DNA from: a virus
Virus record (IMG/VR): IMGVR_UViG_3300040801_000896
Coordinates: 1-38,298 of that record
DNA: 38,298 bases
Reading direction: 5' to 3' (one strand)
The notes below the pieces were generated by a model that did not search any database, was not told the DNA's origin, and saw only the letters and a program-made list of their open reading frames with translations. Below are positions 12,862 through 31,579 of this stretch, in pieces. The position numbers were made by a program, and so were the translations under genes. Each line of letters starts with the position of its first letter. Positions within the stretch are counted from its first letter, which is position 1.

Positions 12862-15124
12862 AGTAGAAAGTGGTCAGGTTTCCCAAGCAGAACGGAGGCT
12901 TGGGGGGCTTGGGCGGACGGCAACAAAGACAGAGAAGGCAACCGGGGGGCTCACTAAGGCATTTATGCGTATGGCGGGGCCCCTTTTGGCCCTTGCTTCT
13001 GCCGGGGCAGCTTTACGCAAGTTAGTTGGGGTAACCCGGGAATTTGACATCCTCAATGCCCAATTGGTCACCGCTACCGGTTCAGCGGAAGGGGCGGCGG
13101 ATGCATTTGTTGCCATCCAAGACTTTGCCACCAACACCCCATACGACCTAGCGCAAGTCACTACTGCTTTTGGGAAGCTAGTCAACCTCGGTTTGACCCC
13201 CTCAGAGAGGGCTTTGACCTCTTACGGGGACACTGCTTCCGCAATGGGGCGGGACCTTAACCAGATGATTGAAGCGGTTGCGGATGCAGCAACCGGGGAG
13301 TTTGAAAGGCTCAAGGAATTTGGGGTCAAAGCCAAATCTCAAGGGGATGATGTGTCCTTTACCTTCCGGGGGGTCACTACTACCGTTAAAAAGGAAGCTG
13401 GGGAGATTGAAGAATATTTGGTTGCCCTTGGGGAGAACAACTTTGCCGGGGCAATGACGGAGAGGATGGACACCCTTGACGGGGCCCTCTCCAACCTTGG
13501 AGACGAATGGGACAAGCTTTGGTTGAACATTTCAAATACCGGGTCTGGGGACATCATTGAAGGGGCAGTCCGGGGGGCAATTGATGCCATTGGGGAACTA
13601 AATGACCTTTTAGCTTCCGGGCAGTTGCAAGCCTACCTTGAGGCGATTGCCAGCAAATTTGACGGGTGGGTTGATGCCGCCCATGACGCAACGGATGCAA
13701 TTTCCACCCTCTTTGAAATGGTTTTCCCCCAATGGGCGGAATCCGGTTCCGGGGCAGTGGGGGAAATTGTCAAGGGGTTCACTACCCTTCCGGAGGACAT
13801 TGAGGCGGTAATGGGTCTTGCCGGGGTTGAGATTTGGGCCCTTGTGGATGCCACCACCACCACCGGCAAAGCAATATATGACACCTTTGTTGCCTCCTTT
13901 GATGCGGTTCTTGATTATATCGAAGGCAAAACGGCAATCATTGGGGAATTCATTTCCCGGGTGGGGTCAAAAGATTGGTGGTTGAAACCACTTGGGGAGG
14001 CTTGGGACTTCTCAGACTTAGACACCCCAGACCTTGAAGAGACTTTTGGGAAAATTGTTGCCGCCTCCGGAAGTGCAACTGACAAGATCAAAGCCCAAGC
14101 CAAAATCCGGGAGGAATCCCGGGTTGAGGTCATCCATGGGATTCTTCAAGAGAGAAATGCCGCGGTTGATTCCTTTGAAACTCAGATTGAAAAAGCGGAT
14201 GAACTCCGGGCAGCGTATGAAGCTTTGAAAGCCGCCCGGGCGGCGGAGGAAGGGGACCGCCTTGCTGCCTTCAAATTTGACCCGGGGGGAGAAGAGGGGC
14301 CCACCGGACCGAGTAAGGAGGACATCAAAGCTTCAAGTGCCTTTGAAAAACTCCGCCAATCCTTGCTTTCTGAGGAAGAGGAAATTGAAGAGAGTTACCA
14401 ACGGCGGAAGCAAACCATTTTGGATTCCACCCTGACAACGGAAGAGGAAAAACTTGCGGTTATGGAACGGTTGAACCGGGACCACCAAGAGCAAATCCGG
14501 GAGTTTGAGCTTTCCCGTTGGAAGGATTCTCTTTCCTCCTTCGATGACTTCCAAAACAACCTTCTTGTCTTGGCCCGGACCGGGAACAAGGACCTTGCAA
14601 ACGTCTTCAAGGCGGCGGCAATTGCCAACACAATTATTAAGACTTACGAATCCGCAACGTCTGCTTATGCTTCCCTTGCCTCCATCCCCTATGTTGGCCC
14701 GGCTCTTGGGGCGGCGGCGGCGGCGGCGGCAATTGCGGCGGGGATTGCCAACGTTCAAGCCATCCGGGCCCAACCAATCGGGCAATATGCCCAAGGGGGC
14801 ATTTTGGGCGGTTCCTCCCCCACCGGGGACCAACTGACCTTCCAAGGCAACTCAGGGGAAGTGATTTTGAACTTTGCCCAACAGAAAGAGCTTTTGGACA
14901 TCGCTTCCGGACGGAAGGAGGGCGGCGGGGGTTCTTCCCCAATGGTCAAGATTTACAATTTGCCCGGGCAAACGGCGGAAACCCGGACGGATGAATCCGG
15001 CAATTTGGAAGTGACCATCAAACAAGCGGAGAACTTCATTGCGGGGCGGATTGCTTCGGGGGTTGGTCCGGTCACCCGGGCCCTTGAAGGGGCTTACCCC
15101 TTGAGAAGGGGGGTTGCTTCCTAA
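12833..15124 (+). CDS. Tail tape measure protein
   Basis: 763 aa, the largest alpha-helical ORF after the chaperone pair. It has the conserved N-terminal segment FATNTPYDLAQVTTAFGKLVNLGLTP and a Gly/Ala-rich hydrophobic stretch (GPALGAAAAAAAIAAGIANV). Confidence 0.9.
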   Translation: MEDVTKLVLEVESGQVSQAERRLGGLGRTATKTEKATGGLTKAFMRMAGPLLALASAGAALRKLVGVTREFDILNAQLVTATGSAEGAADAFVAIQDFATNTPYDLAQVTTAFGKLVNLGLTPSERALTSYGDTASAMGRDLNQMIEAVADAATGEFERLKEFGVKAKSQGDDVSFTFRGVTTTVKKEAGEIEEYLVALGENNFAGAMTERMDTLDGALSNLGDEWDKLWLNISNTGSGDIIEGAVRGAIDAIGELNDLLASGQLQAYLEAIASKFDGWVDAAHDATDAISTLFEMVFPQWAESGSGAVGEIVKGFTTLPEDIEAVMGLAGVEIWALVDATTTTGKAIYDTFVASFDAVLDYIEGKTAIIGEFISRVGSKDWWLKPLGEAWDFSDLDTPDLEETFGKIVAASGSATDKIKAQAKIREESRVEVIHGILQERNAAVDSFETQIEKADELRAAYEALKAARAAEEGDRLAAFKFDPGGEEGPTGPSKEDIKASSAFEKLRQSLLSEEEEIEESYQRRKQTILDSTLTTEEEKLAVMERLNRDHQEQIREFELSRWKDSLSSFDDFQNNLLVLARTGNKDLANVFKAAAIANTIIKTYESATSAYASLASIPYVGPALGAAAAAAAIAAGIANVQAIRAQPIGQYAQGGILGGSSPTGDQLTFQGNSGEVILNFAQQKELLDIASGRKEGGGGSSPMVKIYNLPGQTAETRTDESGNLEVTIKQAENFIAGRIASGVGPVTRALEGAYPLRRGVAS

Positions 15125-15483
15125 TGGTTGCTTGGCCCTCTGTATTCCCCAATCCTGACGTTGGGGTTTCATATGAGATTGATTCCCGGGTTGATGTCCT
15201 GAAAATGGATTCCGGGGAGTTCCGGCAACGTCCCGTCCGGCAGTCCCGGCGATATGTCTTCCCGGTCACCTTCACTTTTTCAGACCTAACTTTGGCTATG
15301 TTCAACGCTTGGTTTGCCTATAAAATTGAATCCGGGGCAACTTGGTTTGACCTTGAATTGCCGGTCAACGGTGGAGGAACAGAAACCCGGTCCGTTCGGT
15401 TCTTTGAACCAAGTTACCAAATCACCCTTTCCATCCCCCCTTCTGTCTGGACTGTAACCGCCCAACTTGAAACCTTGACCTGA
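15124..15483 (+). CDS. Small distal tail protein, paralogue 1
   Basis: 119 aa. TAATG overlap with the tape measure stop. It shares a WP..P.P ... R.R ... F.V.F.F ... F.L.LP ... W.V.A.L pattern with the next ORF. Confidence 0.7.
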   Translation: MVAWPSVFPNPDVGVSYEIDSRVDVLKMDSGEFRQRPVRQSRRYVFPVTFTFSDLTLAMFNAWFAYKIESGATWFDLELPVNGGGTETRSVRFFEPSYQITLSIPPSVWTVTAQLETLT

Positions 15484-15962
15484 TGGCTTCCATCGACTGG
15501 CCAGCAACCATCCCCCTTCCCTCAACCAACTTCTCCGCCTTGGTTGAAGGGCCCTCCATCTTTGGGCGGGGGCCCCGGACAAAGAACTTGGCCCGGAAGC
15601 GGACCCGGCGGACGGTCTTTTCCTTCCCCGTCCGTTGGGTTTTCCTCGATTTGGAGTTCCAAACCTTCGCAACCTTTTTCAAGACCACCCTTTCAGATGG
15701 GGTTTTGCCTTTCAATCTTCCCCTTGCGGGGGTGGGGGATGGACTTGTTGATGTTGAAGTCTTCTTCTCCGGGGCGGAGTATAACGCAACCCCCGGGGGT
15801 GGTTTGGTTTGGGATGTTTCGGCAACCCTGACATCCCACAAGCCCCCCATTTGGGATGAACGGGCCCTTGACCGCTACTTTTTTGATTGGCGTGCCCTTG
15901 TTCTCTCAGGGGGTGAAAATGCATTGCTTGAAGATGCTTCCCCTGTTCTTCTGAAATCTTAA
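15483..15962 (+). CDS. Small distal tail protein, paralogue 2
   Basis: 159 aa. TGATG overlap with the previous ORF. Same sequence pattern as 15124-15483. Confidence 0.7.
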   Translation: MASIDWPATIPLPSTNFSALVEGPSIFGRGPRTKNLARKRTRRTVFSFPVRWVFLDLEFQTFATFFKTTLSDGVLPFNLPLAGVGDGLVDVEVFFSGAEYNATPGGGLVWDVSATLTSHKPPIWDERALDRYFFDWRALVLSGGENALLEDASPVLLKS

Positions 15963-15974: not shown

Positions 15975-17663
15975 ATGGCGGACCCCGAAATTTCAGTTTC
16001 AAATCCTTTTTATTCTGCCTACTCCGGGACGGACCTTGAATATGCTTTAGGGATGGCTCCCATTCTTGCGGCAAGGAAAGCCGATAAGGACGGTAGTAAC
16101 CTTGATGTTGGGAGCATCTCACTTGTCAGCCTTGCTACGGATGTGATTGCGGCAATCGGCGGGGGTAATGACCCTGCCAATTTCCTTGGGAACGTGTCCG
16201 CCCTTTCTGATGACCTTGAAGACCCTGCAACTAGTTCGGGCAAGTGGTATTTTGTTGAGGGGGTTAGCGGAACTATGACCGGAACAAACCCACCTTCTAG
16301 CAGTGTGGAGGATGGTGGATACATCTACAGCAATGGTGCGGCATGGCTTGTGAGGGCTGCAAGTCCTTCTGTTTTAGCAGATGGGCAGATTGCAAAGGCC
16401 AAACTTTCAACCGCCCTTCAAGGTGGTGCTTCTGAGGTTGACGACAGTTACACCGGGGCTTGGAAGCTTATGGATAAAAGCGGACGGCTTTTGTTGGAAG
16501 TGGATTCCACCGGGAAAGTTCAATGTGACCTTGATTTCTCCTCCGTGGATGCCATGGAGGAGGGGAACGAAAGTGAATTTGTAATTGAGGATCTATCCGG
16601 GAAAGTGCTCCTTAAATTTGACGCAACGGGGGCTTTAGTTTGGCCCTTGTTAGCCACCCCTTCGGATGTCTCTGCCGCAATTGCGGCAAACGTAAGCCTT
16701 TCAAACTTAGATTCTTCAAAAATTGATTTGGCAACAATCAACGCGACAATTGGTGCCACCCCGATTGATTTTTCAACTACGGCAGTTGGTGATTCCGGAG
16801 CAACCAGTGTTTTGACTGATACAGGTTTTACCCACCCTTCAGTTCTCCATATCCCCGGGGGTTGGAATGGTGCCAAATATTGGTGCGCGTTGACCCCATA
16901 CCCGGGCACAGATGCACAATACGAAAACCCCACCATTTACACATCTGCCGATGGAATCACATGGGCGGAACCTTCGGGGATTTCAAACCCAATCGTTTCT
17001 TCCCCCTCTGGATCCGATTACAACTCTGACACCGAACTTGTGCTTGGCCCCGATGGTTGGCTTTATTGTTTTTATCGGGCTTCCGAAGGTGGGCAACGTC
17101 GATTCAAATATGTCAAATCCCGGGACGGGATTAATTGGTCAACACCGGCAACCCTAATTGCATATTCAATCGGTGTGGCAGACCTACTATCCCCCTCATT
17201 GGTCTATGACAATGGTTGGCATATGTTTGCAGTCAACATGTTGGCCCCAACGGCAACGGGTGAGTATTATACAAACTATGCCATTGAACGCTATTATTCT
17301 CCCGATTTGGTGACATGGAGTACCCCGGAAATTGTCTCTGTATCCGGACGCCCTTGGGGAACATCACAAGAGCCTTGGCATTTGGCTATCCGTAAGGTTG
17401 GGGCGGCTTGGTTGATGCTCCTTTGCACTTGCAATAATGGCACTAGTGGGAGTTCGGGGCAACTTTTCTTTGGTAAATCCGGGAGCGGGTGGAGTTGGAA
17501 TTTTCAAGATTCAGCATATGGGGGACTATCTAGTGCATATCGCTCTTGTTTCAACGTCACTAGTATCAACAATGACAGTTTGGGTCTCTCCATTCTACGT
17601 GCATCGACCGCTAGTGGATGGCAGATTTTTCAAGATACCGCTACTTTTAACCTCAGTGAATAA
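15975..17663 (+). CDS. Tail fibre / receptor-binding protein with a beta-propeller-like (Asp-box-like) C-terminal region
   Basis: 562 aa. Three motifs resemble BNR/Asp-box repeats: SADGITW, SRDGINW and SPDLVTW. The nucleotide composition differs from the rest of the genome. Confidence 0.6.
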   Translation: MADPEISVSNPFYSAYSGTDLEYALGMAPILAARKADKDGSNLDVGSISLVSLATDVIAAIGGGNDPANFLGNVSALSDDLEDPATSSGKWYFVEGVSGTMTGTNPPSSSVEDGGYIYSNGAAWLVRAASPSVLADGQIAKAKLSTALQGGASEVDDSYTGAWKLMDKSGRLLLEVDSTGKVQCDLDFSSVDAMEEGNESEFVIEDLSGKVLLKFDATGALVWPLLATPSDVSAAIAANVSLSNLDSSKIDLATINATIGATPIDFSTTAVGDSGATSVLTDTGFTHPSVLHIPGGWNGAKYWCALTPYPGTDAQYENPTIYTSADGITWAEPSGISNPIVSSPSGSDYNSDTELVLGPDGWLYCFYRASEGGQRRFKYVKSRDGINWSTPATLIAYSIGVADLLSPSLVYDNGWHMFAVNMLAPTATGEYYTNYAIERYYSPDLVTWSTPEIVSVSGRPWGTSQEPWHLAIRKVGAAWLMLLCTCNNGTSGSSGQLFFGKSGSGWSWNFQDSAYGGLSSAYRSCFNVTSINNDSLGLSILRASTASGWQIFQDTATFNLSE

Positions 17664-17668
17664 AACAA

Positions 17669-18592
17669 ATGGGAATTATCTTACGGCTTCCAAACAATGT
17701 TTCTGACCCAACCGACCGGCTGCCAGTCAACACCCCCCTAGGTCTTACTAGCGCCCAAGTTGGTAACTATTACTATGACATGAAAGAGGCAGGCTATGAC
17801 CTTGACTTAACACAATTTAATGCCCTAACGGCGTTTTGGGCCGCGATTAAAGCGGCGGGTGAGGAAGATAACCTGATTGAAGTTTACCCATTCATTGGGA
17901 CAACCTTTGCCCAAGCTTGCATCAAGTTTAAGGGGGGTGTTGCGGACCAAGCGTTGGTTGCTGTAAATGGGACGGACCTGACCGATTTTGAAGTTTCTTC
18001 CGGTGAAATTCTTGGGTTTGATGACCGGACGTATGCCGGGTCTTCAAGCCGGATGCTTGACCCGGGTGTTACCGGTTCGGACCTTTCATCCGGAATTGGT
18101 GTCCTAGCATACATTGATACCTCAACCATGACCTTTGGTTTGACAGGCAGCGCAAATGACCGGGTTTTAGCTGGCGCGTCCCTTGATGCAACAGCTAGCC
18201 GTCAACTCATCATTGGCTATCGCTATAATGATGACCTTGGCAATGGATATTCCCGTTACAGTTACCGGTATACTGCCGCCACAACATTCCACCAACTGTC
18301 AAACCCCAATGTCTCCGGTGTCTTTCACTCGTTTGCAACCCCTGACCCGGAAAATGCTGAAACGTGGATTGATGGGAGTTTGGAGGGTGGGCCAAGCGCC
18401 TATACTGAGGACACAACATCCTTGGCCCGACCAATTTATATTATGGGCAAATCCCCCTTTAGTGGGTCAGTGAATACCGGGTTTAATGGCAAATGTAGAT
18501 TTTTGGCCCTTACAAATGGTCAGGAAACCCAAGGGGCGGCGATTGCTACGGCACTTACTACCCTTATGGCTGCCCTTGGAAGAACCTTTTAA
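17669..18592 (+). CDS. Second fibre-associated protein (possibly lectin-like beta-sandwich)
   Basis: 307 aa with clean ORF boundaries and the same atypical composition as the preceding gene. No motif recognised. Confidence 0.55.
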   Translation: MGIILRLPNNVSDPTDRLPVNTPLGLTSAQVGNYYYDMKEAGYDLDLTQFNALTAFWAAIKAAGEEDNLIEVYPFIGTTFAQACIKFKGGVADQALVAVNGTDLTDFEVSSGEILGFDDRTYAGSSSRMLDPGVTGSDLSSGIGVLAYIDTSTMTFGLTGSANDRVLAGASLDATASRQLIIGYRYNDDLGNGYSRYSYRYTAATTFHQLSNPNVSGVFHSFATPDPENAETWIDGSLEGGPSAYTEDTTSLARPIYIMGKSPFSGSVNTGFNGKCRFLALTNGQETQGAAIATALTTLMAALGRTF

Positions 18593-18601: not shown

Positions 18602-18799
18602 ATGACCATGCGCAAAATTATTCTGTTTGCCTTCCTTGCCCTCTCCCTTGGGGGTTGTGTCAACCGTCCGGCGGAAATGCCCCGGGAAGAGCCTTCCTTG
18701 ACTGCCCAAGGGCTTGTTGAGGTTTACGGGGAGGACTTCACCCAATGGCCCCAAGGGGCAATTGTGGAGTATTTGAAAGCGGTTGAGGCTGGACGATGA
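18602..18799 (+). CDS. Small lipoprotein, 65 aa
   Basis: Signal peptide with lipobox: MTMRKIILFAFLALSLGG|C. Confidence 0.7.
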   Translation: MTMRKIILFAFLALSLGGCVNRPAEMPREEPSLTAQGLVEVYGEDFTQWPQGAIVEYLKAVEAGR

Positions 18800-19308
18800 A
18801 GGCGGCGGGACTCTTCCTTCTTTTTCTTCTCCTTCTTTCGGGTTGCAATACCACCAAGACGGATGGGGGCGGGGCTTCCCAAGCCCTCCATGAAGCGGGG
18901 AAGGTCATTGCCGCCCAAACTGTTCAAGCCCCGGAGAACCCGGCAACGGTCACCAAATCAACTTTGCGGGAAGTGGAGACCACAACCCCCCAAGAGTTGG
19001 GGCCCCCGGTTGTAACCCGGACCCGGGAAAGTTTCATTGAGATTGGGGCGGCACAAGACTTAGCTAAGATTCTTTCTATTGTGGGGTCCGCCAAGCAAGC
19101 CAAGGGGGTTGCAGTTGGTCTCTGCCTTTTGCTTTGGGCTTTCATTGCCTACCGGAAGGGCAACCCCATTATCGCGGCGGTTTGTGCAACCGGGGCGGCT
19201 TGCTCCTTCTTTTGGCTTTGGTGGGTGGGGCTTTTTGCCGCCTTGGTGGCGGTCCTCATGTTCGTTGCCTTCCGCTTGGGGGTTTACGAAAACCCTCTTG
19301 TCAAATAG
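18796..19308 (+). CDS. Lipoprotein with C-terminal transmembrane segments (u-spanin-like topology)
   Basis: N-terminus MKAAGLFLLFLLLLSG|C (lipobox). The C-terminal hydrophobic stretches are VAVGLCLLLWAFIAY, IIAAVCATGAACSFFWLWWVGLFAALVAVLMFVAF. ATGA overlap with the upstream ORF. Confidence 0.7.
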   Translation: MKAAGLFLLFLLLLSGCNTTKTDGGGASQALHEAGKVIAAQTVQAPENPATVTKSTLREVETTTPQELGPPVVTRTRESFIEIGAAQDLAKILSIVGSAKQAKGVAVGLCLLLWAFIAYRKGNPIIAAVCATGAACSFFWLWWVGLFAALVAVLMFVAFRLGVYENPLVK

Positions 19309-19389
19309 TCCAAGACCCCAAATTGGGGGAGCATTGACCCCCCAAAAGGGGTATTGCAAAGGGGACCCGGAGATGTGGAAAATGATTGT

Positions 19390-19818
19390 ATGACAACAGT
19401 CTCTTCCGCAAAAAGGTTAGTTATGGAAACCTTCCGGGAATATTCCGTCAAACAGTTGACCGTCCCCCTCCTTCTGTTTATCTCCGCCTTGATTGTCACC
19501 AACGGTGCAACATGGACCATCCGTTCTTGGTTCAATGATGGGGCAGACGTTCGGAAGGAACTGCGAACAATCATCCTGCGGCTTGACCAAGCAACAGAAC
19601 TTGCCCGGTCCAATGCTCTTGCGATCGAACTTTTGCAGAAGCAAACTGAAGACAGATACACCTTTTCGATGCGGATTTCAGAATACCAAGAAGAACAGAT
19701 TGTTTTGCTGCGGGAAGGGCGAATTGAAGAGGCGGCAACCCGGATGGACCCAAGGATAATTTTCCCTTTTATGGTTGTCAGTTCCAACGGGTTGGAGAAA
19801 AAAAGGGGCCCGGACTAA
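19390..19818 (+). CDS. Single-pass membrane protein with a coiled-coil ectodomain (i-spanin-like or holin-like; ORF-track start 19354)
   Basis: MTTVSSAKRLVMETFREYSVKQ, then TM LTVPLLLFISALIVTNGATW, then a helical segment ELRTIILRLDQATELARSNALAIELLQKQTEDR. Confidence 0.6.
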   Translation: MTTVSSAKRLVMETFREYSVKQLTVPLLLFISALIVTNGATWTIRSWFNDGADVRKELRTIILRLDQATELARSNALAIELLQKQTEDRYTFSMRISEYQEEQIVLLREGRIEEAATRMDPRIIFPFMVVSSNGLEKKRGPD

Positions 19819-20324
19819 TGCCAACCACCCTTGCAGAAGCTTACCGGGAAGCCCTTGCCAGCGTCCCCAAGGATGTTGTCTTGGTGGATACCCTCTCCAT
19901 CGAACACCCAGACCAAGCGACAATTTACTTGGTCAAAGATTTTGCCGATTTCACGGCATATCTTGAGGACGGGGTAACTGAAGTTACTTTTGAAGCCGCT
20001 CATTTTGACTTCCGGATTCCGGGAAAGGATTCAAATGGGGTTCCGGAACTTCAAGTCACCATCGGGAATGTTGACCGCCGGGTTTCGGATTACCTTGAAG
20101 CCGTCAAGCTTTCGGAAGACCCGGTTGAATTGGTCCTCCGCCCATATCTTTCTAACGATACAAGCGGACCCCAAACAACCCCACCCCTTCGCCTCCAACT
20201 CCGGGATGTAAATGTAACCCTCTTTCAAGCAACCGGAAAGGCGGTCTTTGCCAAGGATTTGAAAAATAAGAAGGTCCCAACCCAACGTTACATCCGGAGC
20301 CGGTTTCCCGGTCTTGGCCGATGA
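19818..20324 (+). CDS. Minor tail protein (DUF1833 / gpL-like position)
   Basis: 168 aa immediately upstream of the NlpC/P60 and J-like genes. The segment VVLVDTLSIEHPD...IYLV is reminiscent of DUF1833 proteins. Confidence 0.6.
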   Translation: MPTTLAEAYREALASVPKDVVLVDTLSIEHPDQATIYLVKDFADFTAYLEDGVTEVTFEAAHFDFRIPGKDSNGVPELQVTIGNVDRRVSDYLEAVKLSEDPVELVLRPYLSNDTSGPQTTPPLRLQLRDVNVTLFQATGKAVFAKDLKNKKVPTQRYIRSRFPGLGR

Positions 20325-20737
20325 AGCCGGGGGAATGGGTTTTGCCCGTCTTGAACAAGCCTTGGAAGCTTGGCGGACGGGGCCCGGAAGAGTTTGATTG
20401 CTTCGGGCTCTTGCTTTGGGTCAAGCGGGTTTACTTCGGGGAGGACATCCCGGACTTCCAAAGCCCCGGCAAGGTGGATATTCGGGCCTTTGTGCGGCTT
20501 TTTGAGGACGGGCGGGGCCAAGGATGGGAAAAGGTCGAAAAGCCCCTTGAGGGGTCCGCCGTTGCCCTTGGGAAGCGCAACCGGATTCACCATTGCGGGA
20601 TCTTCACAACGGCGGACCGGGGCTTGGTAGTCCATGCTTCTGATGGGGCAAGGGTAAGGGCCCAAAACCTCCGCCAATTGAGGGTTGAAGGTTGGGGGTT
20701 GATTGAGTTTTATTCCTTCAAGTCACCATGCCCTTGA
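20321..20737 (+). CDS. NlpC/P60-family peptidase, tail-tip associated (lambda gpK-like)
   Basis: Catalytic-type motifs FDCFGLLLWV (Cys), HHCGIF and VVHAS (His). 138 aa, upstream of the J-like gene. Confidence 0.8.
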   Translation: MKPGEWVLPVLNKPWKLGGRGPEEFDCFGLLLWVKRVYFGEDIPDFQSPGKVDIRAFVRLFEDGRGQGWEKVEKPLEGSAVALGKRNRIHHCGIFTTADRGLVVHASDGARVRAQNLRQLRVEGWGLIEFYSFKSPCP

Positions 20738-23337
20738 TCCACTTTATCCCCAATTCTTTCAAGCCGGAAGAGAAGGAACTTTGCCAAGCCCCGGAGGGGT
20801 CAACCCTCTTTGATTGGGTCAGGGCCCGGTTCCCGGAGGATGGGGAATTCCCATTACCAACAATCTGTCTTTTGAATGGGGCCCCAGTCCTCCGGGGTGA
20901 ATGGGACAAGCCTTTGAAAGACGGGGATTCCGCCGTCTTTTTCTCTAGTCCGGGGTATGAAGCCGCTTGGGTTGTGATTATCCTTCTTGTTGCGGCTCTT
21001 GCTGCCGCTGTTCTTTTGATGCCCGTTCCCACTGCCCCGGGGAGCATTGGGGACCCTGACCCGGTTTACAGTCTGACCGGGCAACGGAACCAAAACCGCC
21101 TTAACTCGGAAATTGAAGTCCCTTACGGGTTGAACCGCCTTTGGCCCTCCAAAGCCGCCCCGGAATATACCAAGTTCATCAACAATGAACAAGAAATTTA
21201 CATCCTCCTTTGCTTGGGCCAAGGGTATTACGACACCGCCGGGGCAACGGTCCAAATTGAGGATACAGAGATTTCCAACTTCGATGACATCACCCATGAA
21301 TTTTATTCCCCGGGGGATGATGTAACCCTTTTCCCGGACAACGTGGAAATCTCTGGAGAGGTTGGGAATATTGAACTTTTTGGGCCCAATGAACCGGAAT
21401 ATGATTCTTGGGTTGGTCCATATGCGGCAAACGCTTCCGGAACAGACACAACCAAACTTGAACTTGATTTGGTCTTTCCGGCGGGGCTTTACTTTGCGGG
21501 GGACTCCGGGGACCTTACCGCCAAGACCGTTACCGTTTCCATTGAATACCGGGAGATTGATGATACCGGGGCCCCTGTTGGGGTGGGAACTTATACCGCC
21601 GTTGCCTTTTCCAAGACGCTTGCCACCAACACCCCCCAGCGGTTCACAACCTCAATTGCCGTTGCTTCCGCCCGGTATGAAGTTCAGGTCCGGCGGACAA
21701 ACAACACCGAAACAGACACAAGCAAGACCCACCGGACCCAAGAGGCAATCCATTGGGTTGCCCTCCGGGCTTTCCTCCCTTCGACCAAGGACTATGGGGA
21801 TGTAACCCTCTTGGCAATCCGGGCCCGGGCTTCAAACAATCTCAACAATAGCAGTTCAAACCGGGTCAATGTAATTACAACCCGGAAACTCCCCATTTGG
21901 GATTCGGGGACGGAAACTTGGTCCGCCCCAACGGTTACCCGTTCCTTGGTTTGGGCTTTCTGCGATGCCCTCCGGGCGGAATATGGGGGGCGGCTTCCGG
22001 ACACTTACTTGGACCTTGCGACATTGGACGCTTTGAATACGGACCTTGAAGCCGCCGGGGAGAACTTTGACTTCGTTTTTGACAAAGCAATGTCTCTTTG
22101 GACCATGTTGACCACCATTGCCCGGGCGGGGAATTGCCTTCCGATTGTTTCCGGCTCTCAAATCTCCATGACCATTGACGAGGTCAAGACAGTCCCAACC
22201 GCCCTTTTTTCCAAAGAGAATATGGTTGAGGGGTCTTTTTCCAAAGACTTCAAACTTTGGACCGATGACGAATACGATGGGGTTGAGGTGGAGTTTATTG
22301 ATGGGACCACCTATGCAACGGAAACGGTCCTTTGCCTTGTGGGGGATGATGTTGGGGACAACCCCCAACAAATCAAATTGCCCGGGGTGACTGACCGGGC
22401 CCGGGCTTGGCGGGTTGGAATGAGGGTCCGGGAAGCCACCAAGCGGAGGCGGGGAGGGGTCCGGTTCTCGACCGGGCTTGAAGGTCATATCCCCAACTTC
22501 AATGATTTGATTTTTGTTTCCCATGACCTCCCCCAATGGGGACAATCCGGGCGGGTTGTCTCTATTTCCGGGACTTCAATTATCGTGGACAATGAACTTG
22601 ATTGGTCCGCCGGGGGAACCTTCAAAATTGCCTTCAGAACGCTCTTAGGGGAAGAGTTGGGACCTTTCACTGTGACAGAGGGGGCGGATGCTTTCACGGC
22701 GGAAATGGGGGCCCCCTTGAGTGCCCCAAGCCTTGCCCTCCTTGCCAGTGGGGACAATGTTGAACCGCCTATTTATGCTTTCGGGGTCGAATCAGGGTTG
22801 GGGGCTTACTGCCGGGTTGTTTCGGTCAATCATGGCGGTGGGGAGCAAGTGGACATTGAAGCTATTGAAGATGATGCAACCATTTATTCCCATGACGCTG
22901 AGAGCCCACCGGCGGCGGTAACCGGAAGCCTTCCCGCCAAGGTAGCGGACCTCCCAACGGTGACCGGGCTTTCCGTCCGGGACATCCCTTCAAGGACCCC
23001 CATTTCCCAAGCAACTTGGAACCCTGCCCTTGGGGCAACTTCTTACGTTGTCCAAGGGTCTTTCAATGGAACGGATTGGTCCGTCCTTGGGGTGACAAGC
23101 CAAAATTTCTTGAACTTCACCGTTGCCCCCGGAAATTACTATGTCCGGGTTGCCGCCATCAATGTTGGGCAAGGCCCTTGGACAACTGCTTGGTCCGGGA
23201 CTGTAGGGGACACAAGTGGGATTGATACTTCCGGGGTCCTCATCATTCCCCCCACTTCGGGGGAAGCTATGGAAGCCAACCAATTTATCATTCAAGACAA
23301 GGCTTACCTTGATTTGTTAGGGTTATATCAGCCATGA
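20728..23337 (+). CDS. Host-specificity / central tail tip protein (gpJ-like) with an N-terminal gpI-like beta-grasp segment and a C-terminal FN3-like domain
   Basis: 869 aa. The N-terminus ...ICLLNGAPVLRGEWDKPLKDGDSAVFFSSPGY plus a hydrophobic helix resembles lambda tail protein I. The C-terminus ATWNPALGATSYVVQGSFNGTDWSVLG...YYVRVAAIN is FN3-like. Confidence 0.8.
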   Translation: MPLIHFIPNSFKPEEKELCQAPEGSTLFDWVRARFPEDGEFPLPTICLLNGAPVLRGEWDKPLKDGDSAVFFSSPGYEAAWVVIILLVAALAAAVLLMPVPTAPGSIGDPDPVYSLTGQRNQNRLNSEIEVPYGLNRLWPSKAAPEYTKFINNEQEIYILLCLGQGYYDTAGATVQIEDTEISNFDDITHEFYSPGDDVTLFPDNVEISGEVGNIELFGPNEPEYDSWVGPYAANASGTDTTKLELDLVFPAGLYFAGDSGDLTAKTVTVSIEYREIDDTGAPVGVGTYTAVAFSKTLATNTPQRFTTSIAVASARYEVQVRRTNNTETDTSKTHRTQEAIHWVALRAFLPSTKDYGDVTLLAIRARASNNLNNSSSNRVNVITTRKLPIWDSGTETWSAPTVTRSLVWAFCDALRAEYGGRLPDTYLDLATLDALNTDLEAAGENFDFVFDKAMSLWTMLTTIARAGNCLPIVSGSQISMTIDEVKTVPTALFSKENMVEGSFSKDFKLWTDDEYDGVEVEFIDGTTYATETVLCLVGDDVGDNPQQIKLPGVTDRARAWRVGMRVREATKRRRGGVRFSTGLEGHIPNFNDLIFVSHDLPQWGQSGRVVSISGTSIIVDNELDWSAGGTFKIAFRTLLGEELGPFTVTEGADAFTAEMGAPLSAPSLALLASGDNVEPPIYAFGVESGLGAYCRVVSVNHGGGEQVDIEAIEDDATIYSHDAESPPAAVTGSLPAKVADLPTVTGLSVRDIPSRTPISQATWNPALGATSYVVQGSFNGTDWSVLGVTSQNFLNFTVAPGNYYVRVAAINVGQGPWTTAWSGTVGDTSGIDTSGVLIIPPTSGEAMEANQFIIQDKAYLDLLGLYQP

Positions 23338-23690: not shown

Positions 23691-25091
23691 TTACTTGGCC
23701 CGAAGGGCTTGGAGGTTCCGCAAGGTTGCCATGAATTCGGATTGGTTGTCTCCCTTGAATTCAACAGCGTCCGCAATGGCATCGTCAATGGACCCGGGAC
23801 AAAGGAGCCGGAAGATTCTTGTTTCCTCCTTCTGACCTTGCCGGGCAACCCGGGCATTGAATTGGTCATAAAGTTCCCGGTTGTGGTCCATTGAAAACCA
23901 GACCGCCCGGCAACCCCCATGTTGGAGGTTGAGCCCGTGGCCAATGCTCTTGGGGTGGGCAACCCAATAAGGGATTTCCCCCCGGTTCCATCGGTCAAGA
24001 TTGCCCTCTTCAAAAGCTTCCGCCCCGGGGACACTCTCCAAGATTCTGGAAGCTTCATGACGGTAGCGGGTTGCCACAAGGAAGGGCTTTCTCCCTTCGG
24101 AATGGTAAAGAGCCTCAAGAGCCTTCAACTTGGCATTGTGGAGGACTTTTACCCGCTTGGGGAGGGGTCTTCCGTCCTCCCCCGGGGGTGGGGTTTCATA
24201 AATGGCCCCGGAAGTAACTTGAACCAACTTTGTGATAAGGACCCCGGCATTGACGGCGGCAACCTCAAAGTCTTCTTCAAGTAAAAGGAGAAGTTCCTTT
24301 TCAAGTTCCTTGTAAAGCCCCCTTGCCTCCTTCGGGAGGGCAACCGGAATGTCAATTGTTTCGGTTGGGGGGATTTTCAGCCAATCCTCTGAACGAAGGG
24401 TCAAGGCAATGTCCGCAAGTTTCTTTTCGATTGTGACCTTGTGTTCCTCCTTCAACTTGAACTTTGGATGGTCCGCCCGGGGGTTGATAACGTCAAAAAG
24501 GTTTTGCTGAAAATGAGTGAAGGACTTCCCCAACCTTTTGCCTTCGTCCAAAAGGCGGATTTGGGCAAACAAATCAAGTTGCCCGTTGGGTATGGGGGTT
24601 CCGGTCAATCCCCAAAACCGCTTGAATTTAAACCGTTGGGCTTTGAAGGCATGGACCCGCTTTGAATTGTGGTTCTTGGCTTGGGTCAACTCGTCAAAAA
24701 TGACGGTATCAACCGGAAGGTCCTTGGTCTTCCAACCTTTGAGACATTGCAGGACAAACCGGGGGAGGGATTCCCAATTGATTGTGTAAATTTCCGCCTC
24801 CCCGGTCTTCCAAGCTTCCATCCCTACCCGGGTCCGGAGGTTGGCAACCCTCCATCCGGAGAATTGAGCCCAACGGGCAACCTCATGGGGCCAAGTCAAA
24901 GTTGAAACCCGAAGGGGGGCAACAATGAGGGCCCCCCGGCAGTCCCCGCCCCCCATCAAATGTTCGAGGGCGGCAAGGACCATGGCGGACTTGCCCAAGC
25001 CACAACCGGCAAAAAGGGCGGCTTCATCCCGTTCAATAAGCCAAGGAATCCCAAGCTTTTGATGGGGGAGGGGTTTAAACTTTTCGGACAT
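23691..25091 (-). CDS. SNF2-family helicase (ORF-track start 25145; ATG at 25091 preferred)
   Basis: Motif I AGCGLGKS, motif II IFDELTQ (DExx), and C-terminal QFNARVARQGQ (motif VI-like). Confidence 0.85.
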   Translation of the reverse strand: MSEKFKPLPHQKLGIPWLIERDEAALFAGCGLGKSAMVLAALEHLMGGGDCRGALIVAPLRVSTLTWPHEVARWAQFSGWRVANLRTRVGMEAWKTGEAEIYTINWESLPRFVLQCLKGWKTKDLPVDTVIFDELTQAKNHNSKRVHAFKAQRFKFKRFWGLTGTPIPNGQLDLFAQIRLLDEGKRLGKSFTHFQQNLFDVINPRADHPKFKLKEEHKVTIEKKLADIALTLRSEDWLKIPPTETIDIPVALPKEARGLYKELEKELLLLLEEDFEVAAVNAGVLITKLVQVTSGAIYETPPPGEDGRPLPKRVKVLHNAKLKALEALYHSEGRKPFLVATRYRHEASRILESVPGAEAFEEGNLDRWNRGEIPYWVAHPKSIGHGLNLQHGGCRAVWFSMDHNRELYDQFNARVARQGQKEETRIFRLLCPGSIDDAIADAVEFKGDNQSEFMATLRNLQALRAK

Positions 25092-25365
25092 CGCAAAGGA
25101 AGGAAATTGCCTTCTTGCCTTCCTCCAAGGAATCCACCCAAGCAACCTTTTGCCCTTGCTCTTGCAGGATTCGGAGTTCCCGCAATTGAAGGGCGGTTGG
25201 GGTCTTCCCGGGGGCTTTCAACTCCAAGAAGAGGACCCCACTATTGGGGGCAATAACAATTCTATCCGGGACCCCCCGCCGGGCGGGGGAACTGAATTTG
25301 TAATACAGGCAACCCCGGCTTTTGGCAAACCGCCCAAGCTTCTCTTCAAGCTCTTTTTCGCTCAC
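25075..25365 (-). CDS. VRR-NUC domain nuclease
   Basis: 96 aa. RGVPDRIVI...VLFLELKAPGK fits the VRR-NUC D...E-x-K signature. Adjacent to the SNF2 helicase, as in many phage replication modules. Confidence 0.8.
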   Translation of the reverse strand: MSEKELEEKLGRFAKSRGCLYYKFSSPARRGVPDRIVIAPNSGVLFLELKAPGKTPTALQLRELRILQEQGQKVAWVDSLEEGKKAISFLCDVRKV

Positions 25366-25640
25366 AACTTGGAAAGCCCCGGATGGTTGGTTTTAATTGC
25401 CCGGTTGATTTCCCGCCGTTCGCAACGCTGAACTTGGACAATCAACTTTTCCAAGATGGGCAACCGGGGTTCCGGGCTTTCAAGCTCAAGGAGAACCAAC
25501 CTCTTCAAATCATCCTTGTTGGGTTTGTTGACCTTGAGGGCCCGAACAAGTTTGTTCCACCCGTCAAGATACCCGGCGGACAAAAGCCGCTCCCGGTCCT
25601 TTTGGGGGACGGTCGGTTGAGTTGGAAAAATCTTTTTCAT
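25362..25640 (-). CDS. Hypothetical protein (ORF-track start 25700 lies inside the polymerase gene)
   Basis: MKKIFPTQPTVPQKDRERLLSAGYLDGWNKLV... No family recognised. Confidence 0.55.
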   Translation of the reverse strand: MKKIFPTQPTVPQKDRERLLSAGYLDGWNKLVRALKVNKPNKDDLKRLVLLELESPEPRLPILEKLIVQVQRCERREINRAIKTNHPGLSKL

Positions 25641-25680
25641 TGTGGGGGAGGTAAAACGGAAACCGTTTATTGTGCAAGAC

Positions 25681-27699
25681 CTATTTTTGGTAGAACTCAA
25701 CCAACTGTCCTTCCGCTTCCACCGGGAGCCCTTCCGCCCAACCGGGGAGAGTGCAAAGGGCTTGGCAATACCCTTCCACCGTCAAGGAGGGGTCCCCGAA
25801 GGCAAGGCATTGGTCATGGACCGGCATGAAGATTTGAAAGCCCCGGGACTCCGCAACAATCATCCCATGGGTCAGAATATCCCCGGCGGTTGCTTGGGTT
25901 GCGTTCTCCAAGAGCTTGCCCCCGAAGGTGGAAACCCAACCCCAAACCTGCTTGCCCGGGGGCTTGCCCCAAAATTGGATTTCATCCGCTTCATACTCCC
26001 GCCCTTGGTATTCCTTCCAAACTCTTTGAATTCGGGCTTTTGGGTAAATAAGGCGGTGACCACTAGGGAGGGACATAACAAGGGCCGGGAACCCGGCTTT
26101 ATTTGTCATTCCAAAGGCAATCCGGGCGGTTGCCTTGAAGATTTTCCCGGGGTTGCGGATTGCGTTCATGGCGGCTTGCCCGATGGAAGCCCAAGCCCCC
26201 ACAATTTCCGGATTGCTTGCCCTCCAAGCGTTGACCGCCTTGACTGCCAACTCAATTGGGATGTCCTGCCCATAGCTTGAACAAGTCCCCTTGAACTTGT
26301 CCGCCCCCATTTGGTAACCGCAACCAAGTTCCGCTTGCTTCCCAACAAACCTTTCAAGGGAGTTCTTGCCGATGGACTCAACCGGAACCCCAAAGATTTT
26401 GGACCCCATTTGTTCATAAATTGGTTCCCCCCGGCGGAAGTGTTCAAGCTTCTCTTCCGCCCCACAAAGCCAAGGGTTGACCCGGGCTTCAATGGCGGAG
26501 TAATCAGCATCAAAAATGCCTTGGGGCCAATGGATGAAATGCCGGATACAGCTTGCCACCGTCTCCAAGGTGGGGCCAAAGAGGGCTTCAAGGGCTTCCG
26601 GGTCCGTCCCCCGGCAAAGAAGCTTGTAAGCAAGTTTTGTGTCCGGAACGGTTGGCTTGCGGAAGTTTTGCGGTTGGATGATCCTCCCGGCGGAACGGTG
26701 GGTCCTTTCCGCCCCGGACCACAAGACCGCCCCCCGGACTCTCCCATCCGAGCAAGCCGCCCCCAACATGGATGGGACCTTCTTGACGGCGGCAAAGGCA
26801 ATCTCATTGCGAAGTTGGAGGGCCCGGAAGGCTTCCGGTTCCATCCCGTATGACTCCGGACCATTGGCCAAGACCTTTTCCACCGTGGCGGATTTCAGGT
26901 TCTTGGCCGGGTAACCCCGTTCAATCAACCAAGCTTGGACCTTATCCCGTTGGGTATGTTCCAACCCGGTGATTCCCCGGAACTCCTTTGCCCTCCCTTC
27001 GGTGAATTCGGAAACCAACTTATGGGTCTTTTGGAGGGCAGGGACATTGACCGGGATTCCCCGTTCATTCATCCTTTGGTCAAATTGGAAACCCGCCAAG
27101 ATGTCCCCCTTGAGTTCAAAGGCGGCAAGCCTCTTGTGGAGGGCTCTTTCTGTCTCAACATCTTGGATACAGTATTCCCCGAACTCCCGGAAGGCTTCCG
27201 GTTCCTCTTGGGGCAAAATCCGTTCCCCCTTCCGCTTTCCGGAGGTTTGCAGGATGGAGAATTTCCGAATCAATGTCTTCCCCCTTGCATCTTTCTTCAT
27301 GGGGAGGTTGAGGAATTCGGCGGCTTTGTCCAAAGATGAAGGGATTGCCGCCCTTCGGGCCATGGCGGCGGTGCAACGCCATTTGTTCAAGGCGGGGAAC
27401 CCGTCAAAGTGGTTACCCCAACAATACTTTGAGACGGCGGCTTCAAATTGGGCGTTATGGGCATAGATCAAAGAATCATCCTCCATGATGGCTTCATTGA
27501 CCCATTGGAGGGCCCGGTAATTGTCCCCCGGGATAACCTCCCGGTAAAGCGGATGGACCCAAAGCCGGGGGCGGTCCTCCCCCTTGGCAATGGCGCAAAG
27601 AAGGATTTCCGTTGACGGGTCCGAAGCGTAACGGAAAGCCCCAAAACTCTTGAGGTCCGCCGTTGAAAAGGTTTCAAAATCAAGATGAAAAACAGACAT
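25681..27699 (-). CDS. Family A DNA polymerase with 3'-5' exonuclease domain
   Basis: Exo I HLDFETFS, motif A FDADYSAIEARV, motif B RFVGKQAELGCGYQMG, motif C MPVHDQ. 672 aa. Confidence 0.9.
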   Translation of the reverse strand: MSVFHLDFETFSTADLKSFGAFRYASDPSTEILLCAIAKGEDRPRLWVHPLYREVIPGDNYRALQWVNEAIMEDDSLIYAHNAQFEAAVSKYCWGNHFDGFPALNKWRCTAAMARRAAIPSSLDKAAEFLNLPMKKDARGKTLIRKFSILQTSGKRKGERILPQEEPEAFREFGEYCIQDVETERALHKRLAAFELKGDILAGFQFDQRMNERGIPVNVPALQKTHKLVSEFTEGRAKEFRGITGLEHTQRDKVQAWLIERGYPAKNLKSATVEKVLANGPESYGMEPEAFRALQLRNEIAFAAVKKVPSMLGAACSDGRVRGAVLWSGAERTHRSAGRIIQPQNFRKPTVPDTKLAYKLLCRGTDPEALEALFGPTLETVASCIRHFIHWPQGIFDADYSAIEARVNPWLCGAEEKLEHFRRGEPIYEQMGSKIFGVPVESIGKNSLERFVGKQAELGCGYQMGADKFKGTCSSYGQDIPIELAVKAVNAWRASNPEIVGAWASIGQAAMNAIRNPGKIFKATARIAFGMTNKAGFPALVMSLPSGHRLIYPKARIQRVWKEYQGREYEADEIQFWGKPPGKQVWGWVSTFGGKLLENATQATAGDILTHGMIVAESRGFQIFMPVHDQCLAFGDPSLTVEGYCQALCTLPGWAEGLPVEAEGQLVEFYQK

Positions 27700-28262
27700 T
27701 AAAAGGGGTTTTCTTCTTCCCGTCCCCGGGCAAGACGTTGGAGGGTTTCAACCTTCTTGAGGACTTGGCTTGCCTCCGCAAAGTAAGACGAAAAGAAACT
27801 TTCGTTTCCGTCAACCGCTTTGGCAATGGCCCGGGCAATGGGTTCCCGGGGGTCCGTCATGCCTTCAACAGAGTGGGAGCAATTTTCCATCCAAGTGAGA
27901 ATCCGAAGGTTGTCGAGTTGGTAAGGTTTGGCCGGGTCAATCCGGTCAATGGTCAAGGACTCTGATTTCTTGCCTTTGTTCTCAAGGTAACCCGTCCCCC
28001 GGCAAAAGTTTTTGAACTCCGCAAATGTAATGAGAAACTTGATACCCCGCTTACGGGCGGAAGCTTCAAGACAGGTCCAAGCGTAATAGGTGGGGTTGTT
28101 CAACCTTTGCTTGCGGCTCTTGCAGGTGTTGCAATCCCTTCTCCCGGACCGGGCTTCCCGGCGGCAACCCCAATGTTTACAGATTCCCCGCTTGAACTTA
28201 AAAACCCGGGTTCCCTCTGAAACCTCTTTGAAGAGGTATTTGTGAGGGAACCCGGGCAGCAT
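27699..28262 (-). CDS. Zinc-ribbon protein with a degenerate HNH-like C-terminal segment
   Basis: Cys cluster CKHWGC...C-N-T-C. The segment TIDRIDPAKPYQLDNLRILTWMENCSH resembles HNH_3 (DH-x-D...N-L...N), but Arg replaces the catalytic His. Confidence 0.5.
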   Translation of the reverse strand: MLPGFPHKYLFKEVSEGTRVFKFKRGICKHWGCRREARSGRRDCNTCKSRKQRLNNPTYYAWTCLEASARKRGIKFLITFAEFKNFCRGTGYLENKGKKSESLTIDRIDPAKPYQLDNLRILTWMENCSHSVEGMTDPREPIARAIAKAVDGNESFFSSYFAEASQVLKKVETLQRLARGREEENPF

Positions 28263-28287
28263 GACACAAACGGCAAAGGATTAAATC

Positions 28288-28866
28288 CTAATCAAGTCCG
28301 TCCCCGTCTTCCTCTTCCGATTCATCAGAGAAGACGGCTTCCGCATTGACGGTTTCCCCGAAGGGCTCCCCATCATTGACGAATTGGACCGCCAAGAGGT
28401 TTGCGGAAACCCCCTTGGTTTTGAAGGCGGCATTGTTGTAAGCCCAAAAGCTCACAAGGGCATTGACGTAGCAACCCGCATAGGGCTTCCCGTCCGCTTC
28501 CACAAGCGGAATGGAGGGGTTGCGGTCAACCACTTGGGGGCGGGTCTTGTTGGAGGCGGAAATGAACATGACTTCTTCCCCGTAACCCGCCTTGTCTTCC
28601 TTCTCTTCCCCGTCCCGGAGACAGAACCGGCAGTTGATTGGGATTTTCCCATTGAAGAACTCCAAAGCGGTTGCCTTGGTGGCTTCTTCAACTTGTTTGA
28701 TTGCTTTCGCATGGGTCCGCTTGCCCAAGAGAAGCGTTGCGGAGAACTTGGGTTCCGAAGTCTTTCCGTTAGCATCCGTGAACCCCCGGGGAGTGAAGAG
28801 GGACGGATAAGACAAACGGACGTTCTTCAAAAGAACCTGTTTCTTGGTGATTTCCTGTTTAGGCAT
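28288..28866 (-). CDS. DUF2815-type phage single-stranded DNA-binding protein (ORF-track start 28917)
   Basis: MPKQEITKKQVLLKNVRLSYPSLFTP...KFSATLLL is the typical DUF2815 N-terminus. It has an acidic C-terminal tail SDESEEEDGDGLD and sits between the DUF2800-type nuclease and the polymerase. Confidence 0.8.
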   Translation of the reverse strand: MPKQEITKKQVLLKNVRLSYPSLFTPRGFTDANGKTSEPKFSATLLLGKRTHAKAIKQVEEATKATALEFFNGKIPINCRFCLRDGEEKEDKAGYGEEVMFISASNKTRPQVVDRNPSIPLVEADGKPYAGCYVNALVSFWAYNNAAFKTKGVSANLLAVQFVNDGEPFGETVNAEAVFSDESEEEDGDGLD

Positions 28867-31543: not shown

Positions 31544-31579
31544 TGGTTAAGGGTTCAACGTTTTAAATGTTCGGGGAGA

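Follow-up and report, generated by a model that had tools for sequence, protein, structure and literature searches.

Spanins, and the unimolecular spanins (u-spanins) especially, are defined by topology and are extremely diverse. The prototype of the u-spanins is gp11 of phage T1, reportedly described by Summer and colleagues in 2007. The features by which u-spanins are recognised are an outer-membrane-type lipobox, a C-terminal membrane anchor, a β-rich periplasmic domain and the absence of periplasmic Cys residues, and in two-component spanins periplasmic Cys residues for intermolecular disulfides have been described as ubiquitous (PMC6139136). Releasins of the DUF2730 type, such as gp25 of phage Mu, are recognised by a match to PF10805 along the whole protein, an N-out/C-in orientation and a gene no more than five genes downstream of an endolysin (Chamblee et al., 2022, PMC9239132). 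The present analysis concerns three consecutive genes, termed g1, g2 and g3, at positions 18602-19818 of the IMG/VR virus record IMGVR_UViG_3300040801_000896, the whole of which (38,298 nucleotides) was analysed and is referred to as the window. The product of g2 is a member of a conserved, hitherto unannotated protein family with a predicted u-spanin-like topology, and the proposal that the trio is a late envelope-disruption (lysis) cassette with g2 as a u-spanin analogue is judged to stand at an even balance.

The three open reading frames (ORFs) were found where the initial annotation had placed them, all on the plus strand and co-oriented. They had been described as partly overlapping, which is correct for g1 and g2, sharing 4 nt (ATGA), and incorrect for g2 and g3, between which lies a gap of 45-114 nt; the stop codon of g3 and the start codon of the downstream gpL-like gene overlap by 1 nt (TAATG). 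Coding scores per codon of 0.23 for g1, 0.26 for g2 and 0.15 for g3 fall within the range of confirmed genes. Late co-expression of the trio with the tail genes is indicated, because the genes overlap or abut their neighbours and scans for promoters and terminators around the trio gave no signal above shuffled expectation. The trio was present on four other contigs of the Joint Genome Institute (JGI) at 99.95-100% identity, across which microdiversity carried no selection signal. Single-protein queries with g2, the gpL-like protein and the J-like protein found no close relatives among IMG/VR and JGI metagenome contigs, and a megablast search of the tail region against isolate phages gave no match. 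The lipoboxes claimed for g1 and g2 both satisfy a PROSITE-type rule. A lax lipobox pattern gave about five matches in each shuffled genome, but across the whole genome g1 and g2 were the sole matches with a real n- and h-region, a non-overlapped ORF and a positive codon-usage score.

The g2 gene (18796-19308, plus strand) encodes a lipoprotein of 170 residues, with the signal MKAAGLFLLFLLLLSG directly before the lipobox Cys (Cys17) and Asn at position +2. Its hydrophobic segments, at approximately 105-121, 124-141 and 143-161, all lie in the last 65 residues. Residues 17 to approximately 87 form a predicted periplasmic domain of four β-strands with the motifs GG, Q..PENP and IGxxQDLAKI, and no Cys occurs between Cys17 and the first transmembrane helix (TM1). 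The AF2 model calculated with a family alignment, A1, reached a predicted local distance difference test score (pLDDT) of 81.6 and consists of a signal helix, two hairpins (strands 26-33/36-44 and 53-66/69-83), a helix at 88-120 that comprises a juxtamembrane part and TM1, a KGNP loop, and two further helices, TM2 (124-139) and TM3 (142-160).

A word-indexed search of 5.8 billion proteins returned only self-matches of g2. An exhaustive HMMER search of 1.84 billion cluster representatives identified a family of 40 proteins at E<=1e-3, 19 of them at E<=1e-10, which are 25-38% identical to g2 and 114-257 residues long (mostly 153-195), most of the stronger matches being aligned over nearly their full length. 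In alignment A1 the lipobox Cys (Cys17) is near-invariant and closely followed by an invariant GG; further motifs are QPENPEG, T..PDG and IGGSQDLAxI, and the first of three hydrophobic segments is succeeded by a basic R/K-x-x-W-P loop. A lipobox is present in all 30 aligned members and Asp at +2 in none, the +2 sorting rule for lipoproteins being derived from E. coli and possibly not that of the phage host. The periplasmic part is free of further Cys throughout the family, the counts obtained for three rows reflecting a mis-registered lipobox. Pattern scans did not succeed with alignments A1 and A2, which were too divergent, but did so with the smaller A3 and A4, from which few loci were obtained. 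The periplasmic motifs are better conserved than the transmembrane (TM) helices and, in the AF2 model, map to the turns between predicted strands, for which reason they are taken to reflect the structural constraint of an elongated β sheet rather than an active site.

The family corresponds to no model in Pfam, PHROGs or NCBIfam, has no relative in the PDB by sequence search and no tblastn match in 50,697 isolate phage records, and a Foldseek search of the g2 model against BFVD and the PDB returned nothing at E<=1e-3. Weak matches to 'Rz-like spanin' PHROGs, obtained for five of the 30 members, were rejected as evidence of homology, since in the one member checked the match spans just the signal/lipobox region. 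The u-spanin topology previously assigned to g2 is consistent with its LSGC lipobox, its C-terminal anchor, the lack of periplasmic Cys and the predicted β-rich domain; it does not extend to the number of helices, which is three, or to any relationship with T1 gp11.

Besides the window, 12 genomic contexts of g2 homologues were read. Phages that bear g2 homologues include those of contigs SRR33375160_11061, SRR28148159_3197, IMGVR_UViG_3300017971_000570 and _000579. The homologues reside in late structural operons of unrelated backbones, mostly beside fibre or enzyme genes. In two Mu-like elements (L014 and L015) the first gene to follow the Mor region, across a gap of 340-410 nt, is the g2 homologue, and gp27, terminase and portal genes come after it. 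The Mor-to-gp27 position is occupied in Mu by the lys cassette (PMC9239132); in L014 and L015 the g2 homologue and a single-TM partner sit in this slot, and no endolysin was recognised there either. The remaining contexts include podovirus-like contigs (L013, with an SU10-type capsid gene, L029, L030 and L032-L034), an HK97-like head module in which the homologue lies between head and neck genes (L019), a tail module resembling that of gene transfer agents in which it lies upstream of the tail chaperone and tape measure genes (L018), an integrase-bearing element (L017) and a short contig of high G+C content (L036). In L030 the homologue is the last gene of its operon, as is gp11 in T1. No endolysin was recognisable in those g2-family loci for which precomputed Pfam matches were listed, and no g1-like gene lies beside g2 homologues elsewhere, the exception being an unrelated lipoprotein in L018. 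As the family spans unrelated backbones and virions, its function is more readily tied to conserved features of the envelope than to one receptor or tail type. The Mu-like element of L014 (10001-11019; 18626-19936) adjoins an EPSP synthase gene whose product shares 78% identity with its counterpart in a Puniceicoccaceae (Verrucomicrobiota) metagenome-assembled genome; this element may be a remnant, because it seems to stop after the Mu F gene.

A single-TM protein is encoded no more than two genes downstream of the g2 homologue in nine of these 12 contexts and is helical in eight of the nine. Six of the partners (L012, L013, L014, L015, L033 and L034) have their TM segment at the N-terminus, two (L017 and L019) at the C-terminus and one (L029) in the centre. 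Charge distribution, in those partners where it is clear, predicts a cytoplasmic helical domain, with an N-out/C-in orientation in L014 and L015 and a tail anchor in L017 and L019, an arrangement closer to that of the Mu gp25 releasin than to that of Rz. These partners share an architecture and little sequence. L033 (663-1615) and L034 (10001-11169) encode an identical g2 homologue of 177 residues beside different single-TM partners, one of 139 residues and helical, the other of 211 residues with a non-helical domain; the partner gene is therefore regarded as exchangeable.

In the window the corresponding position is taken by g3, which ends at 19818 on the plus strand and for which three starts were considered: 19354 (TTG, 154 residues), 19390 (ATG, 142 residues, as chosen in the initial annotation) and 19423 (ATG, 131 residues, as chosen by the JGI gene caller). 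It has a single TM segment, LTVPLLLFISALIVTNGAT, contains no Cys and is predicted to be mostly helical; a single-sequence AF2 model is helical, with approximately 100 residues of helix after the TM segment, at low confidence (pLDDT 41). In the search of 5.8 billion proteins g3 found itself alone, and a match to Saf_2TM, at E=0.005 and 17 bits where the cut-off is 29.5, was dismissed as noise. Neither g3 at E<=0.01 nor the partners in L014 and L015 at E<=0.05 matched PF10805 (DUF2730). Depending on the start codon, the Lys plus Arg counts on the N- and C-terminal sides of the TM segment are 4 versus 3 (142- or 154-residue start) or 2 versus 3, and the membrane orientation of g3 as judged from these counts is ambiguous. 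The proposal that g3 is a type-II, i-spanin-like protein was consequently not supported, given these ambiguous positive-inside counts and the cytoplasmic orientation of the clear-topology partners elsewhere. Sequence homology between g3 and those partners was not demonstrable, while architecture and position are held in common; g3 is an orphan in sequence and a positional analogue of the single-TM helical partner beside g2 homologues.

The g1 gene (18602-18799, plus strand) encodes a predicted lipoprotein of 65 residues with the signal MTMRKIILFAFLALSLGG directly before the lipobox Cys. The mature protein, of 47 residues, is acidic and contains five Pro residues and no further Cys. The gene was called at the same length of 65 residues on four independent JGI contigs. 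No match was found in Pfam, PHROGs or the PDB, and in NCBIfam there were just sub-threshold matches to signal peptides, so that by these searches g1 is an orphan. Searches of PHROGs, Pfam, NCBIfam and the PDB likewise gave no homology to the Llp and Cor families, to which g1 could be likened in size, lipobox and position only. As regards conservation of the trio in relatives, the outcome is divided: the g2 family occurs elsewhere (40 representatives), g1 and g3 are orphans and the sister phages described below carry a different cassette.

The two ends of the window (1-117 and 38182-38298) overlap exactly over 117 bp. The genome in the window is therefore complete, and either was assembled as a circle of 38,181 bp or has a short direct terminal repeat. 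Essentially every plausible protein of the window was scanned against PHROGs and Pfam, and a subset against NCBIfam; these scans did not take in a 105-residue ORF at 9434-9751 on the minus strand, an uncertain gene with a positive coding score in a gap of approximately 430 nt between the head-tail adaptor and head-closure genes. No scanned protein matched an endolysin, holin or spanin family, and the earlier statement that no holin or endolysin is recognisable stands at the level of hidden Markov models across the complete genome. The sole recognisable peptidoglycan-peptidase fold is that of the gpK-like NlpC/P60 protein (20321-20737, plus strand), with FDCFG Cys and HHCG/VVHAS His motifs read from the translation as catalytic residues. 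This protein was rejected as a hidden endolysin on the grounds that it keeps the L-K-J synteny of the tail tip, and the 562- and 307-residue proteins encoded upstream of g1 were rejected in the same role, as they look like receptor-binding or depolymerase modules. A genome-wide hydropathy scan identified g1, g2 and g3 as the only ORFs with TM segments, outside the tape measure, 562-residue and J-like proteins, that are neither overlapped by confirmed genes nor negative in coding score; no lipobox ORF is embedded in g3. Because the genome is complete and contains no other non-structural membrane ORF or lysis-family match, any membrane-acting lysis protein must lie in the trio. The initial annotation's view of the trio as the best candidate for lysis or envelope disruption is thereby borne out, and for membrane-acting functions the trio is by elimination the only one.

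The trio is flanked, as had been reported, by genes at the fibre position upstream, encoding the 562-residue protein (15975-17663, plus strand) and the 307-residue protein (within 15975-18592, plus strand, 3' of the 562-residue gene), and by tail-tip genes downstream, encoding the gpL-like DUF1833 protein (19818-20324, plus strand), the gpK-like protein and the gpI/J-like protein (20728-23337, plus strand). The 562-residue protein contains Asp-box motifs and a C-terminal phrog_37952 domain, and the 307-residue protein has no library match. Neither gene has similarity to the corresponding genes of the sister phages; both are lineage-specific and occupy the position of the variable fibre or enzyme genes of relatives. 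In the 562-residue protein the Asp-box-like sequences SADGITW and SRDGINW lie inside the C-terminal phrog_37952 region, and these motifs suggest a BNR/sialidase-like propeller, i.e. a tail-associated glycosidase or receptor-binding protein. A strongly hydrophobic segment is present at approximately residues 75-104 of the J-like protein, apparently in a gpI-like portion fused to J.

The position between the fibre genes and gpL was compared across the lineage. In the distant relatives Janthinobacterium phage Donnerlittchen and an Acinetobacter phage (Bhz20), in which J is approximately 36-39% identical, the order is tape measure, phrog_384 protein, a large enzyme or fibre gene, a protein of approximately 240 residues, gpL, gpK and J, with nothing between the approximately 240-residue gene and gpL; the holin and endolysin genes of Donnerlittchen lie downstream of J, where the window has an empty position. 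A gpL search led to sister phages (58-64% identity in gpL), SRR33375158_33500 and k141_1463514 among them, with the same backbone as the window. Every one of them has, between its fibre genes and gpL, a small cassette (L007, 5970-7439; L009, 8531-9997; L008, 8589-9996) that encodes a lipoprotein, a papain-fold protein and a TM protein. The lipoprotein, of 157 residues, has an FAGC or FTGC lipobox, and the L008 version of this domain carries an N-terminal fusion of three TM segments. The papain-fold protein (144-147 residues) matches Agglutinin_C at 27.2 bits, just above the cut-off, and more weakly Gln_amidase; it has no match in isolate phages and could be a novel endolysin. The TM protein is a single-TM helical protein of 150 residues, replaced in L008 by a TM protein of 82 residues. 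None of the three sister cassette proteins had a tblastn match in the window. In the sister phages the whole block of the 562-residue gene, the 307-residue gene, g1 and g2 is replaced, and L007 and L009 carry different fibre genes with the same cassette. The slot is thus a lineage-typical site for a variable membrane-protein cassette of lysis-like composition. The location of the trio had been called unusual, which is half right, as a membrane-protein cassette is found in that slot in every sister phage examined.

For the localisation of g2, its bridging of two membranes and the timing and lytic nature of its action, we infer the following sequence of events. On the most parsimonious view the trio, as the membrane part of the lysis system, would be co-transcribed with the tail genes and expressed late, with g2 as the core component. 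After processing by signal peptidase II, the N-terminal Cys of g2 would be lipidated and, there being no Asp at +2, sorted to the outer membrane, while the three C-terminal helices would remain in the inner membrane and the β-hairpin domain of approximately 70 residues, together with the juxtamembrane helix, would bridge the periplasm. Once the wall had been weakened, g2 would then act as a functional analogue of T1 gp11 in disrupting or fusing the outer membrane, and its three-helix N-out/C-in bundle, which has the topology of a class I holin, might add an inner-membrane lesion. The g3 protein would be a membrane-tethered helical partner, most likely with a regulatory or auxiliary function at the inner membrane, like that of a holin, antiholin or releasin, and less likely a periplasm-spanning i-spanin. 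As an accessory small outer-membrane lipoprotein, g1 may serve either as an o-spanin-like partner or as a receptor-masking factor.

Several observations weigh against this lysis proposal. Its chief weakness is that no muralytic enzyme is recognisable in the window beyond the tail gpK-like protein, which leaves the cassette incomplete by canonical standards. Library, PDB and Foldseek searches linked g2 neither by sequence nor by fold to any known spanin or holin. A folded β domain of approximately 70 residues may fall short of the width of a typical periplasm, and g2 has three helices rather than the one transmembrane domain (TMD) of u-spanins. The absence of detectable homologues of g1 and g3 means that their roles receive no independent support. 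The sole clue to a host is the Puniceicoccaceae (Verrucomicrobiota) neighbour gene beside one family member. Finally, most of the g2-family contexts lie beside fibre or receptor-binding genes, where llp and cor are also located.

The last of these points leads to the main alternative, itself rather unlikely, in which the trio would be a moron for superinfection exclusion or envelope remodelling: a receptor would be masked, or the entry of DNA blocked, by g1 alone or together with g2, much as by the lipoproteins Llp of T5 and Cor of T1 and phi80 or by the inner-membrane protein gp15 of HK97, g3 would be an accessory membrane protein, and the cassette would be co-inherited with the adjoining receptor-binding genes. 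The Llp/Cor-type size and lipobox of g1, directly 3' of lineage-specific putative receptor-binding genes, would fit such a role, as would the replacement of the 562-residue/307-residue/g1/g2 block as a whole in sister phages, the fibre or enzyme genes adjoining most g2 homologues, the modular shuffling seen in L033 and L034, which is typical of accessory genes, and the lack of an accompanying endolysin. However, PHROGs, Pfam and NCBIfam gave no homology to Llp, Cor or any exclusion family, and the occurrence of the g2 family with wholly different tails and fibres, including myovirus-type Mu-like elements in which it takes the lys position, would be unexpected for a receptor-specific blocker. 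The shared cassette of L007 and L009, which differ in their fibres, indicates that cassette and receptor-binding gene are not strictly coupled, and a non-lytic trio would leave a complete tailed-phage genome without any membrane lysis protein. Neither an integrase nor a repressor was seen among the window genes, so that there would be no lysogen to protect. The virulent phages T5 and T1 nonetheless carry exclusion genes.

A redistribution of the lysis roles within the trio, with g1 as o-spanin, g3 as i-spanin (N-in/C-out, with a periplasmic coiled coil) and g2 as a class I-like holin with three TM segments and a lipid-anchored extension, was considered unlikely. It would accommodate the o-spanin-like size of g1 and its five Pro in 47 mature residues, the approximately 100 helical residues that follow the TM segment of g3 and the Lys plus Arg count of 4 versus 3 favouring its N-terminal flank with the 142- or 154-residue start, the N-out/C-in arrangement of three helices in g2, which are rich in small residues and include a conserved Gly in TM2, and the fusion of the sister lipoprotein to three TM segments in L008, which has a faint match to a holin PHROG (E=0.03). 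Yet g1 and g3 both lack the periplasmic Cys called ubiquitous in two-component spanins (PMC6139136), the conserved part of g2 is, unlike in holins, the periplasmic domain and not the TM segments, the clear-topology partners elsewhere face the cytoplasm, and apart from the unrelated lipoprotein in L018 no g1-like gene accompanies g2 homologues. Lower again in our estimation is a self-sufficient module of g2 and its single-TM partner that would work without a phage endolysin in Verrucomicrobiota-like hosts, g2 either breaching the inner membrane in the way of a holin and also tying it to the outer one in the way of a spanin, or triggering host autolysins through its conserved periplasmic domain; this would explain the absence of a recognisable muralytic enzyme both in the window and at the Mu lys position of the two Mu-like elements. 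A membrane-associated role in virion assembly or infection, for instance in putting together the tail or fibres or as an ejected protein, and thus outside lysis and exclusion, is very improbable. The trio does lie within the tail operon between fibre and tip genes, and g2 homologues recur inside structural modules (between head and neck genes in L019 and before the chaperone and tape measure genes in L018); however, the distant relatives have the same tail architecture and no gene at the slot, one family occurs with sipho-, podo- and Mu-type virions, and to our knowledge no lipidated multi-TM protein is a siphovirus tail component or chaperone, which also counts against it. The remaining probability is assigned to something beyond the readings listed here.

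The genes around the trio form a siphovirus late region on the plus strand (35-23690), as identified with Pfam and PHROGs. Its order is small and large terminase, portal, head-morphogenesis protein, scaffold, major capsid protein, connectors, tail tube, chaperones and tape measure, followed by two phrog_384 paralogues, the 562- and 307-residue proteins, the trio, the gpL-, gpK- and gpI/J-like proteins and a protein of 118 residues. A replication module on the minus strand (23691-37666) encodes a helicase, PolA, an endonuclease VII/HNH-type nuclease, a gp2.5-like single-stranded DNA-binding protein, an exonuclease, a ParB-like protein, a primase and a second HNH endonuclease. The phrog_384 ('virion structural protein') paralogues are in tandem (15124-15483 and 15483-15962) 3' of the tape measure gene; sister phages have two copies and the distant relatives one. 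The head-morphogenesis protein (4110-6002, 630 residues, SPP1 gp7/MuF-like) has an extra C-terminal domain at approximately residues 507-624, matching phrog_33618, which could be cargo ejected with the DNA. At least six copies of TGCCTGAT(T/A), in both orientations, are present at 37853-38066 in a non-coding region of approximately 500 nt between the HNH and small terminase genes; in sequence they look like iterons or parS sites, and the ParB-like protein is encoded by the same phage (32423-33232, minus strand). Most genes (e.g. those at 7321, 15975 and 17669) are not preceded by a Shine-Dalgarno motif, the upstream sequence being A/T-rich or unremarkable, which suggests a host with weak Shine-Dalgarno usage.

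The locus presents the puzzle of a tailed phage whose genome is complete and yet contains no recognisable endolysin or holin, and the lysis proposal for the trio, if true, would supply an annotation handle for genomes that seem to have no lysis genes. Confirmation of g2 as a u-spanin analogue would establish a conserved, alignable family of approximately 40 representative clusters with a confident model; its three-helix anchor is unusual and its partner gene recurrent, and the phages concerned have poorly sampled hosts, one member lying in an apparent Puniceicoccaceae prophage. Were the trio an exclusion system instead, it would represent a new exclusion family common to very different phages.

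Set against the systems already described, g1 resembles Llp of T5 and Cor of T1, phi80 and N15 in being a precursor lipoprotein of approximately 65 residues encoded beside putative receptor-binding genes, and differs from them in having no sequence similarity to either and no detectable homologues. Together, g1 and g3 recall lambda Rz/Rz1, as a small lipoprotein and a single-TM, helix-rich protein in one late cassette with no other recognised spanin. Unlike in Rz/Rz1, the lipoprotein gene lies upstream, with g2 in between, and is not embedded in, overlapping or directly downstream of g3, periplasmic Cys residues are lacking, and there is no homology to the Rz/Rz1 families of PHROGs or Pfam. 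The partners in L014 and L015 are like Mu gp25 in their predicted N-out/C-in TM segment, cytoplasmic helical domain and location in the Mu lys region, and g3 has the same relative position, whereas neither they nor g3 match PF10805 or have an endolysin identified upstream. The C-terminus of g2 is similar to class I holins of the lambda S105 type in its three Gly/Ala/Ser-rich helices with predicted N-out/C-in topology; in contrast to these holins, g2 has a long lipid-anchored periplasmic N-terminal domain, which is its most conserved part, and has no highly charged C-terminal tail, dual-start motif or adjacent endolysin. From T1 gp11, g2 is separated by its three helices in place of one TMD, by the lack of a recognisable holin or endolysin next to it, by the helical partner found in most contexts, and by an hhalign comparison with A1 that gave a probability of 4.3% over 15 aligned columns, covering the lipobox only. 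The two proteins nevertheless share an outer-membrane-type lipoprotein signal with the identical lipobox LSGC, a predicted extended-β periplasmic domain of approximately 70-90 residues without periplasmic Cys, a C-terminal anchor with a short cytoplasmic tail, a small size (133 residues for gp11 and 170 for g2) and a place in a late operon (Kongari et al., 2018, PMC6139136). The g2 family, new in having no annotation in Pfam, PHROGs or NCBIfam and no tblastn match in the isolate phages searched, and linked to a partner gene, would in function belong to a known kind, that of the spanin-like lysis proteins.

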